Below the pieces are notes generated by a model. The model saw only the letters and a program-made list of their open reading frames with translations, had not been told where the DNA came from and made no database searches. DNA of 64,000 nt, taken from positions 298,537 through 362,536 of the forward strand of contig CAWFCE010000002.1 in assembly GCA_963814275.1 (NCBI GenBank), read 5' to 3'. The position numbers and the translations under genes are program-made. Shown in pieces: positions 26,215-64,000 of the stretch. Every line of letters begins with the position of its first letter. Positions within the stretch are counted from its first letter, which is position 1. This DNA comes from Candidatus Parcubacteria bacterium. GTDB taxonomy: Bacteria > Patescibacteriota > Patescibacteriia > Patescibacteriales > UBA12075.

Positions 26215-26384
26215 CGAAAACAACAATTGACAATTAACTTTTGACAGTTGACTGTTTTGTAAAGGCCAAGTTTCGCAAAACAGTGTTGACGATAGTTGTC
26301 GGAATAAATATATGGAGGTGTTTCTGAAATTGTTGAATGTTGTCTGGGTTAATTGTTAAATGTTAACTGTCAATTGTCGAAAAC

Positions 26385-26457
26385 GGACGCATAGCTCAGC
26401 TGGTAGAGCGCTTCGTTTACACCGAAGATGTCCGGGGTTCGAGTCCCTGTGCGTCCA
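26385..26457 (+). tRNA. tRNA-Val(UAC)
   Basis: Acceptor ggacgca/tgcgtcc, anticodon arm cttcg-ttTACac-cgaag, and T arm ccggg-gttcgagt-ccctg region. Confidence 0.85.
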
Positions 26458-26606
26458 CATCATAAAACTACCTGCACTCAGGTAGTTTTATGATGTGGAG
26501 GTATAGACTCCGAGAACCCTGCCTGATTATTCGCGTTATTTTTGTTAAATGATCATTTTATTTTCTAAATATTTTAGTTTCATCTTTCAATTTTAATTGA
26601 TGGCGT

Positions 26607-26641
26607 GGGGCTTCCGCCCCTTCGAGTCCCTGTGCGTCCAC
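26607..26641 (+). repeat. Duplicated 3' fragment of tRNA-Val preceded by the GGGGCTTCCGCCCC hairpin
   Basis: ttcgagtccctgtgcgtccac (26621-26641) is identical to 26438-26458 of tRNA-Val. It is preceded by ggggcttccgcccc (26607-20). Confidence 0.8.
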
Positions 26642-26841
26642 GTTCGCAAATGACGAGTTACGAATATCGAATGGCGAATATAATTTTATTTGGAATCGGC
26701 AGTGTGCGATTTCTGTCTTCTCGAGCCTTATGTACGCATAAACTGGAACAGCTGTGATATGGAGTGGTTTTTATTTTAATGTTAAATTAATCTAAAAATT
26801 ATATAATATTAAATATTAATTAATATTTAATTGCCATTTTT

Positions 26842-40678: not shown

Positions 40679-40867
40679 AATTATTTTAGATAACAGATAA
40701 CAGACAGCAGATAGCAGTCGTTAATCGTGTCCTATCCTTAGAATATTATAGAATAATTAATAAATATTAGCGTAAATATCAAGTAATGTCAAATTTATTA
40801 TTCTTTTATTTTCCTGAAGTTAACTGTTAATTGTCTACTGTCAATTGTTATATACCGCCCCTCGATT

Positions 40868-40975
40868 CGCTACGCTCCCGATAATGATTTCTGAGCGGGT
40901 AACCCCGTACGACTCGCTTACGCTCGCTACGGGGCAGGCGGGAATCGAAGGGGGCGGAAGCCCCAATCCATCATA
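40868..40975 (-). repeat. Degenerate 3' fragment of tRNA-Gly plus a duplicated 36-nt flank
   Basis: The 36-nt direct repeat cgctacgctcccgataatgatttctgagcgggtaac occurs at 40868-40903 and 41087-41122. Read on the minus strand, the fragment is ggggcttccgccccc-ttcgattccc-g-[ccccgta..tacgggg hairpin]-ttacccgctca. Confidence 0.75.
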
Positions 40976-41112
40976 AATCAATGGGCCGTGCAATTGTTAT
41001 GTTAAATTCTCAAGGTTGATTCGATAGTTTTAAAGCCTTTGGTCAGTCGGGTTCTCACCGAGACCCGCTCATAAATCACTATCGTCCGCTACGCTCCCGA
41101 TAATGATTTCTG

Positions 41113-41185
41113 AGCGGGTAACGGGAATCGAACCCGTATCTTCAGCTTGGAAGGCTAACATAATAAACCATTATACGATACCCGC
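41113..41185 (-). tRNA. tRNA-Gly(UCC)
   Basis: Minus-strand read: gcgggtatcgtataatggtttattatgttagccttCCAagctgaagatacgggttcgattcccgttacccgct, anticodon loop cttccaa = UCC. Confidence 0.85.
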
Positions 41186-41346: not shown

Positions 41347-41351
41347 GGATT

Positions 41352-41423
41352 CAAATGACGAATGTCGAATTACGAATGTCGAAAGATATCCCATTCGTCA
41401 TTCGAAATTTGTAATTCGACATT
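41352..41423. repeat. Heptamer-word hairpin spacer (gaatgtc/gaattac words)
   Basis: aaatgacgaatgtcgaattacgaatgtcgaaag / cattcgtcattcgaaatttgtaattcgacattt form an imperfect palindrome between tRNA-Pro and tRNA-Phe. Confidence 0.8.
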
Positions 41424-42482: not shown

Positions 42483-44078
<1,596 letters not shown>

Positions 44079-44618
44079 GAAAAGTTTTTTGACAGGTTTA
44101 CTTGCCTGTTTAAGCAATGTTGTGTAAACACGAACAGTGCTTAAGGAATATATGAGGAAAATGAGTTTCCTAATTGTTTGTACTTGGTTGTTGCAAATTG
44201 GCGCTTATTAGCGCCATATTATATTCGGTTGTTAATGACCGCAAACGCGATAAATTTGCCTTCCCGCCAGATAAGCAAAAAACAGACCTTACAGCCTGTT
44301 ATCAAGTGTAAGCGGGTCGGTTTTTGGTTTTGTTTTTAGATTGTCATGGATTTATCGCAATTTGTTATTGCAATAATAATATTAAAGGATTTGCCGAAAT
44401 CTGTCAAGGCAATTCAGATAGTAGATAACGGATAGCAGATAGCAGCCAATTTTTTATTTAATATTAAATGATTTATTTAATAAACGAGCTAATATTAGTT
44501 TCCCGGGGTGTGATTAAGGAAAATTATAAATTTATATACAATCAAATTCCGGTTATTTATCAAGAGTATTTGCACAGGTTTTGAACATATTTAAAATGCG
44601 TTTTAAAAAAATTATTTT

Positions 44619-51559: not shown

Positions 51560-51798
51560 CCCTTCGACAGGCTCAGGGCAGGCCCTTCAGCTCAGTGACA
51601 CTTGCTCGGGGCAGACCCTTCAACATCGTACTGTTTGCTCAAGGCAGGCTGCCCGACTCTTAATTGATGGTTGAAAATTATTTTCCGCGTTTAATCCGCG
51701 TATTGATCAGCGTCCAATCAGCGGTAGAATGATTGATTGTTCGACTGCCGTGAATATCGTGGAAGCGGTAAAAAACTATCGTTCAAGGGTAATATTGT

Positions 51799-60120: not shown

Positions 60121-60544
60121 GATAATTACCAAATAAAGACAAAATTAATAGTAATCATCTTTTATGAGTTACTCCATAACTACTAAATGCAAAAGCGGTT
60201 GATGCACTAGCTGGTTTAAAGTGTGGTCAAACCGCTTTAAAGCGGTTTTTTGTTTCAAATCTGGCTTAGTCCTTTCAATTAAAGAGAAAAACGGTCCAAT
60301 CGAATTCAGGAATCTATTAATCAACTCGGATGCTGTGAAAACAAATTCGGAGCATCCGGATATAGTTCGTAGATTCGGATTATGAGTTGAACTTTAACAA
60401 TTCAATATAGTCCGCAGTTCCCGACAGAACTGCGGACAATTAAGAGCATCAAACCATCCGGCATCGCAATGCCGGATAATCGAAGAGTCCGTTCATAGAG
60501 CGATCTATGGACAAAAACGTTTTTGAAACCAAAAACGTGGGAAA

Positions 60545-64000
<3,456 letters not shown>

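Follow-up and report, generated by a model that had tools for sequence, protein, structure and literature searches.

The insert that follows the gene for tRNA-Gly(UCC) on the minus strand raises the question of what can occupy a tRNA gene, carry no gene of its own and leave a second, broken copy of the tRNA 3′-end downstream. tRNA genes are classic landing sites of large integrative elements; this insert measures 219 bases. ARAGORN and Rfam both bear out the tRNA gene that the initial annotation had placed here, the final gene of a 16S-Ile-Met-Phe-Pro-Gly cluster, in which CCA is not encoded. Read in the direction of the tRNA, the gene runs into a hairpin, then A′ (the T-arm and acceptor 3′-strand repeated imperfectly in inverted orientation), an AT-rich spacer, the sequence GGGGCTTCCGCCCC, and a second tRNA copy that begins at T54 and is interrupted by a 36-nt GC hairpin segment. 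We favor, with about even confidence, the view that the insert is a non-autonomous tRNA-directed insertion element belonging to a lineage-specific, gene-less family, and that its replacement 3′-end keeps the tRNA intact. A full-text literature search found no published description of these elements, and the family is apparently undescribed. Coordinates are collected in Table 1, in which positions refer to the window, the whole 64-kb stretch of DNA that was analyzed.

Table 1. Features of the tRNA-Gly(UCC) and tRNA-Val(UAC) loci in the window (DR1 and DR2, left and right direct-repeat copies)
Feature	Position	Strand	Basis
Intact tRNA-Gly(UCC)	41112/41113-41185	−	ARAGORN; Rfam RF00005, 64 bits
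DR1 (Gly), T54 to tRNA 3′-end plus 24-nt trailer, 46 nt	41087-41132	−	sequence, repeat finder
Hairpin T1, long imperfect palindrome	41058-41124	−	inverted repeat I1, fold
A′ (Gly), GAGCGGGTCTCGGTGAGAACCCGA, imperfect inverted copy of tRNA positions 49-73	41047-41070	−	alignment score 26; inverted repeats I1, I3
AT-rich spacer (core), long size class, CTGA at start, TGATGGATT at end	40965-41046	−	sequence
Invariant GC hairpin GGGGC-TTCC-GCCCC plus one extra C, right end of element	40950-40964	−	motif search
GGGGCTTCCGCCCC, Gly copy	40951-40964	−	
DR2 (Gly) part a, TTCGATTCCCG, T-loop and start of T-stem 3′-strand, second copy	40939-40949	−	sequence
Secondary insertion in DR2, CCTG plus 32-nt hairpin CCCCGTAGCGAGCGTAAGCGAGTCGTACGGGG	40903-40938	−	sequence
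32-nt CCCCG...CGGGG hairpin within it	40903-40934	−	
DR2 (Gly) part b, acceptor 3′-strand and 24-nt trailer, exact 36-nt repeat of 41087-41122	40868-40903	−	repeat finder D1
GAATCGAGGGGCGG, imperfect inverted copy of hairpin/T-loop junction (40943-40958), this locus alone	40855-40868	−	sequence
tRNA-Val(UAC), host of sister element	26385-26458	+	ARAGORN
DR1 (Val), T54 to end, 21 nt	26438-26458	+	ARAGORN
Val sister element	26459-26620	+	sequence, alignment, folds
Perfect 17-bp hairpin of Val element	26459-26494	+	
A′ (Val), GTGGAGGTATAGACTCCGAGAACCCTG	26495-26521	+	
AT-rich core of Val element, 85 nt	26522-26606	+	
GGGGCTTCCGCCCC, Val copy	26607-26620	+	
DR2 (Val), TTCGAGTCCCTGTGCGTCCAC, identical to 26438-26458	26621-26641	+	sequence

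The anatomy of the Gly copy shows where the tRNA ends and the insert begins. The 36-nt direct repeat described earlier is exact and corresponds to the last 36 nt of DR1; if uninterrupted, the repeat would span 46 nt, from T54 to 24 nt beyond the tRNA end. In hairpin T1 the acceptor 3′-strand and trailer pair with their own inverted copy over arms of 27 nt (85% complementary) on either side of a 13-nt loop, and in A′, which is found in nearly all family members, TGAGAA replaces the T-loop complement TTCGAA. Neither this inverted tRNA copy nor the left boundary, which falls exactly at G53|T54 of the T-loop, appeared in the initial annotation. The downstream piece, which it had recognized as a disrupted second tRNA 3′ copy, is indeed that, and is at the same time the regular right-hand repeat of the element. 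The hairpin said to interrupt this repeat is real, but the segment is 36 nt long rather than 32, four bases (CCTG) having been omitted. This insertion is secondary and lies outside the ground plan of the family; its CCCCG hairpin occurs once in the window, and a reading of it as a repeated mini-element of the genome was rejected. The inverted repeat at the far end likewise exists but is not perfect: its 14 nt pair with 16 nt across two single-base gaps, and the repeat finder, which works without gaps, left it out.

Two of the ten tRNAs in the window bear an element, and the insert at tRNA-Val(UAC) follows the same plan and has the same length as that at tRNA-Gly (183 nt) once the 36-nt hairpin of the latter is set aside. 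The sequence GGGGCTTCCGCCCC occurs exactly twice in the 64 kb, each time directly preceding a T-loop/3′-end copy of the tRNA located ∼170 nt upstream. An empty Val site, composed of the T-stem 5′-strand, T-loop, 3′-end and right flank, would read GGGGTTCGAGTCCCTGTGCGTCCACGTTCGCAAATG. The two inserts had been assigned to one element family on the strength of a common terminus and internal block. That sharing holds for GAGAACCC..CTGA, for TGATGGnnTGGGGCTTCCGCCCC, and for architecture and length, but not elsewhere in the interior, and a pairwise alignment of the two interiors scored no better than shuffled sequence (z = −0.2). Because the window interiors are not significantly similar, support for the family, which is itself borne out, comes from external members and the common architecture and not from the Gly/Val alignment.

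The external members were collected by an exact-pattern search of species-representative genomes for the 14-mer GGGGCTTCCGCCCC plus TTCGA. Among the matches listed were ∼50 further copies, all in Falkowbacteria/Parcubacteria-type (Patescibacteria) MAGs, and every listed copy lies on the same strand as a tRNA, 80 to 200 nt downstream of it. The host tRNAs cover at least 18 amino-acid specificities, and 18 pattern matches in unrelated GC-rich genomes, which serve as a control, had no tRNA context. The 14-mer is exact at all ∼50 related loci, with one variant known (GGGGCTTTGCCCC), an invariance of motif and T-loop that is partly built in because the sample was ascertained by exact 14-mer plus TTCGA. 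The unit, measured from one T54 to the next, comes in two discrete lengths of 99 to 120 nt (∼110) and 164 to 196 nt (∼182). It begins at T54 with the remainder of the tRNA and some trailer, completing the working tRNA; a hairpin follows, then A′ (imperfect inverted copy of tRNA 49-73, with TGAGAA for the T-loop complement), a linker, which is short, or else ∼84 nt of AT-rich spacer, and finally GGGGCTTCCGCCCC, after which the second tRNA copy runs from T54 onward. In 44 related elements, as at both loci of the window, the insert is flanked by a direct repeat of the tRNA 3′ part, with the intact tRNA at the left. This repeat starts at T54 in every case and measures between 8 and 79 nt. A′ and the 3′ copy, which form the inverted arms, vary with each tRNA, and no terminal inverted repeats are fixed across copies. 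Long-class spacers keep to 80 to 87 nt and are barely conserved in sequence, and some spacers and linkers are nevertheless related across different tRNAs: L015 (Gly) and L032 (Cys), in one genome, share AACGTTAATCGACT and a hairpin, the L035 and L038 elements are related, and three short elements of MAG CAYUCS, which has at least nine exact-motif copies on three contigs, have GTACGGCGT in common. The 3′-end replacement by which large integrative elements spare a tRNA gene is found here in units of ∼110 to 180 nt without genes, at most kinds of tRNA in one lineage of ultra-small bacteria.

Occupancy and copy number differ among related genomes. The window, L010 and L026 all have an element, though not of one size class, at the tRNA-Gly(UCC) site, which is empty in the syntenic relative L108. 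L023 is filled at tRNA-Arg(UCG) and empty at tRNA-Lys(CUU), and L062 shows the reverse. Strain L072, 99.7% identical, carries two tandem 219-nt units where the window has one, and tandem units are also found in L022, L032, L050, L052 and L062. The flanking direct repeats allow duplication of a unit by ordinary recombination, and precise deletion would be expected to follow the same route. The duplication in L072 requires no transposition, only recombination between the 36-nt repeats. Among strain variants of the Val locus, sought by exact-protein look-up, the sole contig found, short-read contig L106, ends ∼100 nt before the element; contig L073 begins inside the repeat. A metagenome scan with the S16 protein for orthologous tRNA-Gly/rpsP sites returned 32 loci, none with an upstream tRNA cluster.

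The elements encode no enzyme. The inserts in the window (162 to 219 nt) contain no ORF, their neighbors are the housekeeping genes rpsP, KH, trmD and cmk, and no recombinase or transposase was found within or beside them. A GIY-YIG homologue was not detected in the window by tblastn, and no circular form or trans-acting enzyme of the elements was found. Other inserts in this clade also duplicate part of a tRNA and leave one intact; a GC hairpin adjoins the partial copy, and some of these inserts encode a GIY-YIG nuclease (L108 at tRNA-Phe; L068 at tRNA-Asp, mirrored). There is a precedent in fungal mitochondria, in which mobile endonuclease ORFs come with a new end for the gene they enter, the native one persisting downstream, as in Allomyces atp6 and in Glomus atp6, atp9, cox2 and nad3 (PMC3630166). 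The likeness lies in the replacement 3′-end of an essential gene, the insert and the native end as a downstream duplicate (PMC3630166), an order that the GIY-YIG ORF at tRNA-Phe in L108 shows exactly; the elements described here differ in having no ORF, in targeting the T-loop and not a protein-coding 3′-end, and in that replacement and native ends are usually identical, whereas those of the fungal genes have diverged.

We speculate that a tRNA-directed insertion element of this kind would enter at G53|T54 of the T-loop and bring its own replacement tRNA 3′-end, so that the tRNA remains functional, while the original 3′-end would be displaced and persist as a downstream fragment. The element's tRNA-sense strand may fold back, with A′ pairing to the 3′-end copy, and so present a duplex mimic of T-arm and acceptor beside the GC hairpin, which an enzyme supplied in trans would recognize. 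Candidates are a recombinase of the host and, among the enzymes encoded near tRNA genes in these genomes, the small GIY-YIG nucleases, which could act through break repair. This reading has no explanation for the rewriting of A′ and the 3′ copy for each new tRNA. Moreover, the conservation of the right repeat, of spacer length and of the pair L013/L031 (below) looks like purifying selection, which speaks against neutral decay after insertion.

Those signs of constraint are the core of the principal alternative, which we consider unlikely. On this view a structured, tRNA-like RNA module useful to the host, rather than selfish DNA, would stretch from A′ to the second 3′-end; it would be co-transcribed with the tRNA, passed on vertically and lost through repeat-mediated deletion. 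In its fold, a closing stem resembling that of an acceptor, as long as 12 bp or more with G-U pairs included, would surround a GNRA-type GAGA hairpin together with the GC hairpin beside a genuine T-loop. The right repeat and GC hairpin are much better conserved than A′, with no mismatch across 21 nt of the right repeat in 33 of the 44 elements and an A′ match of only ∼64%; spacer length is kept where spacer sequence is not; and L013 and L031 are identical at 51 of 52 positions from A′ to the hairpin while their flanking coding DNA is 80% identical. Both elements of the window fold far more stably than shuffled controls, with z = −3.6 for Gly and, for Val, −7.8 as RNA and −8.2 as DNA. In L023, L013 and L031 the element sits inside a tRNA operon, 1 to 14 nt ahead of the next tRNA, and must therefore be transcribed. 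Substitutions in A′ are strand-asymmetric (28 C>T versus 2 G>A), and 33 of 70 are wobble-compatible on the tRNA-sense strand compared with 4 on the opposite strand, a bias that would follow if G-U or G-T pairs were kept on that strand, and that could equally reflect an RNA function. However, 48 of the 70 changes belong to a general drift towards T, and the C>T excess need not mean selection on base pairs. A minority of tRNAs bear an element, and which ones do varies among related genomes. In L018 and L014 decay has turned the acceptor portion of A′ into AT-rich sequence and left no closing stem; right repeats are eroded or interrupted by hairpins in the window Gly copy, L029, L030 and L040, with GC hairpins in L040 and L030 splitting the repeat at a place analogous to the Gly copy; and L032 and L058 contain nested and tandem copies. 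The inserts match no Rfam family beyond chance hairpin matches (E up to 10), genuine tRNAs alone scoring, and the segment is not recognized as a tRNA. RNAalifold, applied to 14 short units aligned with MAFFT, recovered the invariant hairpin alone, without covariation, a result attributable to the inability of MAFFT to align the tRNA-specific arms.

By analogy, such a module could act in processing or termination or as a decoy, like the plant-mitochondrial t-elements and the RNAs from tRNA 3′ external transcribed spacers, in which an acceptor-stem and T-loop mimic is transcribed beside genuine genes. An acceptor-like stem with T-loop is present in most of our copies, and RNase P or RNase Z could cut such a mimic, the cleavage signal here being putative. 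The present mimic differs from t-elements in copying the neighboring tRNA's own 3′-end exactly and in having a conserved 10-nt insertion before the T-loop.

A more radical proposal, and in our judgment an improbable one, makes the insert part of a retargetable, protein-less insertion system whose specificity module is the pair of inverted and direct target-tRNA 3′ copies around a constant core, rewritten for each tRNA. In its sharpest form, the GC hairpin and the ∼20 nt identical to T54-73 would constitute a guide for a nuclease or recombinase encoded elsewhere. The guided enzyme would home to tRNA T-loops and might tell self from non-self by G52-G53 in the real gene versus GCCCC in the element copy. 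The hairpin plus 20 nt resembles the homing crRNA of type V-K CASTs or a TnpB guide; unlike in those systems, neither the cognate genes nor transposon ends are present, with no Cas12k/TnsBC or TnpB genes and no Tn7 or IS605 ends in the window or at the loci. Readings as small dispersed repeats of the cyanobacterial kind or as what is left of a type V-K CAST were rejected on the same absence of Cas12k/Tns genes and Tn7 ends and on the Patescibacteria-like character of the window, namely unlinked 16S and 23S genes and synteny with Falkowbacteria-type MAGs.

It is very improbable, in our estimate, that the inserts are scars of integrase-mediated islands or prophages in tRNA genes that have lost nearly all their DNA and retain attL and attR around a short intervening piece, as a remnant of a cis-mobilizable element would. 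A direct repeat from the T-loop past the tRNA 3′-end does flank the insert, reportedly the classic signature of T-loop-class tRNA integration, a sublocation class that Williams is said to have set out in 2002. Random deletions would not be expected to yield two tight size classes, however, nor would they produce an invariant 14-mer and GAGAA block at 18 specificities or an inverted copy for each tRNA. A tblastn search with an XerD probe gave no integrase match in the window or near any of the ∼50 Patescibacteria loci, and among the 68 genome loci and 3 viral matches listed, for which the exact right end was required, there was no full-length or autonomous relative with these ends. Least probable of all is local replication template switching, in which a nascent strand snaps back at the terminator hairpin and T-arm palindrome with nothing mobile involved, for although it would give the direct-inverted-direct triplication of the tRNA 3′ segment that is observed, as in tandem inversion duplications, and would fit both a first junction at which the hairpin is continuous with the tRNA end and an A′ that ends exactly at the T-stem base (position 49), it cannot give unrelated tRNAs a common GGGGCTTCCGCCCC, GAGAA and linker, leaves the related spacers at different tRNAs unaccounted for, meets a tRNA-side hairpin that is absent from the right-repeat flank in most loci, and is already largely refuted by the common non-tRNA sequence.

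Several other identities were considered for the motif and the inserts and rejected. A peptide read through it (ATG ATG GCG TGG GGC TTC CGC CCC TTC GA..., giving MMAWGFRPFE) has start codons and frame that are not conserved in the short class; the reading moves out of frame where an additional C or G follows the motif, and each tRNA would specify a different C-terminus. The three viral-contig matches do not represent a phage attP carrying the motif, being one GC-rich coding sequence (...ARGFRPF...) without tRNA context. IS200/IS605-like, IS91-like and IS110 bridge-RNA readings predict no long direct repeat, their cognate genes are absent, and the geometry of their cleavage sites misfits a hairpin that abuts the junction.

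The tRNA-directed insertion element that we favor shares features with three further kinds of mobile DNA. Integrative elements that target tRNA genes (prophages and islands, T-loop class of Williams 2002), together with their gene-less, cis-mobilizable derivatives, likewise insert at the T-loop, supply a replacement tRNA 3′-end, are flanked by a direct repeat from the T-loop to past the 3′-end and form tandem arrays; in contrast, the present inserts are 100 to 200 nt long without an integrase or other gene, and the same ends occur at no fewer than 18 specificities and not one, each with an inverted tRNA 3′ copy. Like MITEs and REPINs, they are small, gene-less and multi-copy, with a long hairpin, conserved ends, a variable interior and size variants by internal deletion, but the inverted termini copy the target tRNA where those of MITEs and REPINs are fixed transposon ends, and the flanking duplication is of variable length (8-79 nt) and always starts from T54. 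We know of no related transposase or RAYT gene for these elements. With integron attC and CTX-phage attP(+) they have in common an imperfect palindrome with a fixed mismatched center (G57-A and A58-G opposite TGAGAA), strand-specific constraints, a G|TT junction, tandem arrays and a length kept more than sequence. Integron integrase and attI are absent, there is no phage genome, and the R-box consensus is unmet; between the attC boxes (RYYYAAC ... G|TTRRRY) and GAGAAC ... |TTCGA, AAC/GTT alone is common to both, and the similarity is one of resemblance only.

The elements break assemblies (L073, L106) and make partial tRNA copies that annotation pipelines ignore, and because their copy number varies between near-identical strains they could serve as strain markers. 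Their meaning for the biology of these bacteria depends on which reading is correct. If they are functional RNAs, they would represent a new tRNA-linked RNA class. If they are mobile, the puzzle is how a protein-less element acquires copies of each new target in both direct and inverted orientation, and the anatomy would point to an enzyme that recognizes a mimic of the tRNA T-arm. Should the retargetable guided system prove true, Patescibacteria would harbor a new class of guided mobile DNA.

The tRNA-Gly(UCC) and tRNA-Val(UAC) genes of the window are each followed by an insert that runs from T54 of the tRNA to the T54 of a second copy of its 3′ end (see table). The exact direct repeat at the Gly locus is 36 nt in the window, and the two units are of equal length, 183 nt between successive T54 positions, once the secondary hairpin of the Gly copy is subtracted. 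Every tRNA in the window was checked, and the remaining eight are without such an insert. The positions that the initial annotation gave for the exact 36-nt repeat, the hairpin, and the 14-mer all match ours, and its proposal that the Gly and Val inserts form one family is supported; it placed the Gly insert correctly, but its transcription omitted four bases (CCTG) and it missed the inverted tRNA copy (A′). Directly 3′ of the right repeat, the second direct copy of the tRNA 3′ end, GAATCGAGGGGCGG at 40855-40868 repeats, imperfectly and in inverted orientation, the hairpin/T-loop junction 75 to 103 nt upstream, and pairing between the two would put the entire second tRNA 3′ copy inside a stem. 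No inverted copy of this type was seen after the right repeat at other loci.

Table. Features of the Gly and Val elements, in window coordinates
Feature	Position	Strand	Description
tRNA-Gly(UCC)	41185-41112	minus	final gene of 16S-Ile-Met-Phe-Pro-Gly cluster
Gly element, left direct repeat	from T54 (41132)	minus	TTCGATTCCCG TTACCCGCTCA + 24-nt trailer
Gly element, next part		minus	13-nt loop
Gly element, A′		minus	imperfect inverted copy of trailer, acceptor 3′ strand, and T-arm: CGATAGTGATTTATGAGCGGGTCTCGGTGAGAACCCGA
Gly element, AT-rich stretch		minus	82 nt, 3′ end TGATGGATT
Gly element, GC hairpin (14-mer)		minus	GGGGCTTCCGCCCC + one extra C
Gly element, second tRNA copy, first piece		minus	TTCGATTCCCG
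Gly element, secondary insertion in second copy	40903-40938	minus	36 nt, GC-rich: CCTG + 32-nt hairpin
Gly element, second tRNA copy, last piece		minus	TTACCCGCTCA + identical 24-nt trailer
tRNA-Val(UAC)	26385-26458		layout as at Gly locus
Val element, direct repeat			21 nt, starting at T54
Val element, hairpin			perfect, 17 bp
Val element, A′			inverted copy GTGGAGGTATAGACTCCGAGAACCCTG
Val element, spacer			85 nt, 3′ end TGATGGCGT
Val element, 14-mer			identical to Gly element's GGGGCTTCCGCCCC

A pattern scan for the 14-mer, an optional base, and TTCGA, with one genome per species, returned at least 68 loci. Among the 68 listed, 18 lie in Actinomycetota, Acidobacteriota, Planctomycetota, and similar GC-rich genomes without tRNA context and serve as a chance control. 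The other 50 come from MAGs named Falkowbacteria, Parcubacteria, "Patescibacteria group," Gammaproteobacteria, or Saccharibacteria; those labeled Gammaproteobacteria or Saccharibacteria are syntenic with the MAGs bearing the first three names and with the window, as judged from 16S identity of 86 to 88% and shared rpsP-KH-trmD neighbors. In these 50 loci the 14-mer lies 80 to 200 nt 3′ of a same-strand tRNA, and the sequence 3′ of it is the host tRNA from T54 onward, with a repeat length of 8 to 79 nt. The hosts include tRNAs for Ser, Leu, Gly, Arg, Tyr, Lys, Cys, Ile, and Glu as well as Met, Val, Gln, Asn, Pro, Ala, Thr, Asp, and His. Unit lengths form two classes (99-120 nt versus 164-196 nt), the long class differing from the short one by an added AT-rich segment of ~70 nt, often between TGAT and TGATGG; long-class spacers are 80 to 87 nt in length, yet their sequences are barely alignable. 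An unbiased search for tRNAs whose 3′ end recurs downstream, run on every tRNA in the fetched loci, recovered one element with a variant hairpin, GGGGCTTTGCCCC, its stem preserved and its loop altered.

Nearly all members carry A′, an imperfect reverse complement of tRNA positions 49-73 located 3′ of the tRNA-adjacent hairpin. A′ is tRNA specific on either side of a center that mostly reads (C)GAGAA, as opposed to the TCGAA of a perfect complement, so that a G and an A face A58 and G57. Of the 369 positions aligned across its acceptor and T-stem portion, 70 deviate from the perfect complement; 48 of these 70 changes are towards T, with C>T far more frequent than G>A (28 versus 2). This asymmetry keeps G-U (or G-T) pairing on the tRNA-sense strand only, although it could instead be part of a drift towards T. 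In 33 of 44 elements the right repeat shows no mismatch over 21 nt, in contrast to a match of ~64% for A′. Folding of the sense strand is far stronger than that of shuffled controls, both as RNA and as DNA. That the inserts constitute a functional tRNA-like RNA module is a serious rival explanation, consistent with how strongly the right repeat and GC hairpin are conserved, the length constraint, the location within tRNA operons, and the 51/52 identity of the A′-to-hairpin segment between loci L013 and L031, whose flanks are 80% identical.

The elements are polymorphic. Downstream of tRNA-Gly(UCC), the window carries a long-class element and loci L010 and L026 a short-class one; the site is empty in L108, a 1.03-Mb contig that comes from the same sample and shares the Ile-Met-Phe-Pro-Gly-rpsP gene order. 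In L108, the T-loops of tRNA-Gly(UCC) (2220-2293) and tRNA-Phe (1590-1662) read TCCGATT and have a C at position 55, which is normally invariant; this change may conceivably be connected with escape from inserts directed to the T-loop. L023 and L062 differ reciprocally, filled versus empty, at tRNA-Arg(UCG) and tRNA-Lys(CUU). In L072:2709-3182 (ENA ERZ25039495 contig_93023), 99.7% identical to the window, two tandem 219-nt units replace the single one at 40868-41122, each with the secondary hairpin and both set apart from the window copy by an identical pair of point differences; copy number therefore changes via the 36-nt repeats. Tandem units occur at five further loci. Spacers are related across different tRNAs: L015 (Gly) and L032 (Cys), from one MAG, have a common hairpin and AACGTTAATCGACT; those of L035 and L038 are related; GTACGGCGT is common to three short elements of MAG CAYUCS; and the TGATGGYGT end seen in the window is found again at tRNA-Leu and tRNA-Tyr genes of other genomes. 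Decayed or interrupted copies include window Gly, L029, L030, and L040. In the nested locus L058:4515-4743, an intact tRNA-Arg(GCG) precedes the 3′ remnant of another tRNA-Arg that comes with a hairpin of its own, a matching inverted copy, and the GC hairpin. The final repeat at L058 instead matches the intact upstream tRNA, and the locus may be a snapshot of an element switching host tRNA. Hairpins of 36 to 40 nt, GC-rich and several with a CCTGCC or CCCGC start, split partial tRNA copies at window 40903-40938, in the L040 and L030 right repeats, and at L068 ~1950-1990. Such interruptions are confined to nonfunctional partial copies, functional tRNAs never being split, and may represent a separate small hairpin element favoring such fragments.

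Several features of the rRNA and tRNA neighborhoods were also observed. The window rRNA genes are unlinked (42486-44084, minus, and 60541-64000, plus), the 16S being followed by five tRNAs and the 23S lying 16 kb off on the opposite strand. The 16S is 1599 nt against a 1533-position model, and ~100 nt near its 5′ domain are absent from the L026 16S (88% identical). The tRNA spacers (41350-41423 and 26640-26680; also 40800-40850 and 26330-26380) contain CGAAT-rich inverted and tandem repeats, TCAAATGACGAATG and TCGAATTACGAATG, plus TTAAC/CAATTG-rich runs, which occur again 5′ of tRNAs in related MAGs and contain a promoter-like TTGACA-17-TAATAT before rpsP. Roughly three GC-rich units matching CCCTTC..GCTCAG.GCAGRC lie downstream of tRNA-Arg(CCG) at window 51562-51655, and a near-identical TTCGACAAGCTCAGTGCAGAC lies 3′ of tRNA-Lys(CUU) at L023:880-900.

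Further inserts in tRNA genes of this clade follow the same principle. Small GIY-YIG genes (78-91 aa, catalytic domain only) adjoin tRNA genes at L108:1590-1980, L068:1590-2000, L010:3994-4230, and L015:73-318; those of L108 and L068 have an intact tRNA on one side and its duplicated part on the other, next to a GC palindrome. The tRNA-Phe of L108 directly precedes a 91-aa gene, the palindrome, and a 51-nt second tRNA copy (anticodon stem to 3′ end); in L068, the gene separates an intact tRNA from a tRNA-Asp 5′ fragment itself split by a 40-nt GC hairpin. At L064:298-510, tRNA-Phe is followed by two extra ORF-less copies of its 3′ two-thirds (anticodon stem to past the 3′ end) at 62-nt spacing, each preceded by GGCGCC, an arrangement that resembles that of L108 without the ORF. 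At L015:505-603, the first 29 nt of tRNA-Gly(GCC) are duplicated just 5′ of the intact gene, with GC hairpins following the copy; the intact gene also bears the T-loop element 3′. Mobile endonuclease ORFs of fungal mitochondria supply a replacement gene end while the native end stays downstream (PMC3630166), and the inserts of this clade are a tRNA counterpart of these.

The T-loop inserts contain no ORF, and the genes flanking them are housekeeping. A XerD probe had no match in the window or the Patescibacteria loci, no Rfam family matches the inserts, and in viral contigs the 14-mer and TTCGA pattern was found only within unrelated coding sequence. Scars of an integrase, or purely local template switching, would each account for the repeats but leave the shared constant sequence unexplained. 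Nonautonomous insertion at the T-loop is the simplest account given the exact T54 boundary, the wide range of tRNAs, the polymorphism, the shared non-tRNA sequence, and the absence of genes, and we see an even chance that the inserts are nonautonomous, mobile, tRNA-directed insertion elements. Such an element would enter at the T-loop, bringing a replacement 3′ end; its tRNA-sense strand would fold so as to mimic the duplex of T-arm and acceptor next to the GC hairpin, and the flanking repeats would afterwards permit duplication and deletion. A full-text literature search found no description of the elements, and the family appears to be undescribed; we would place it, as a form not reported before, among insertion elements that are directed to tRNA genes and replace their ends.
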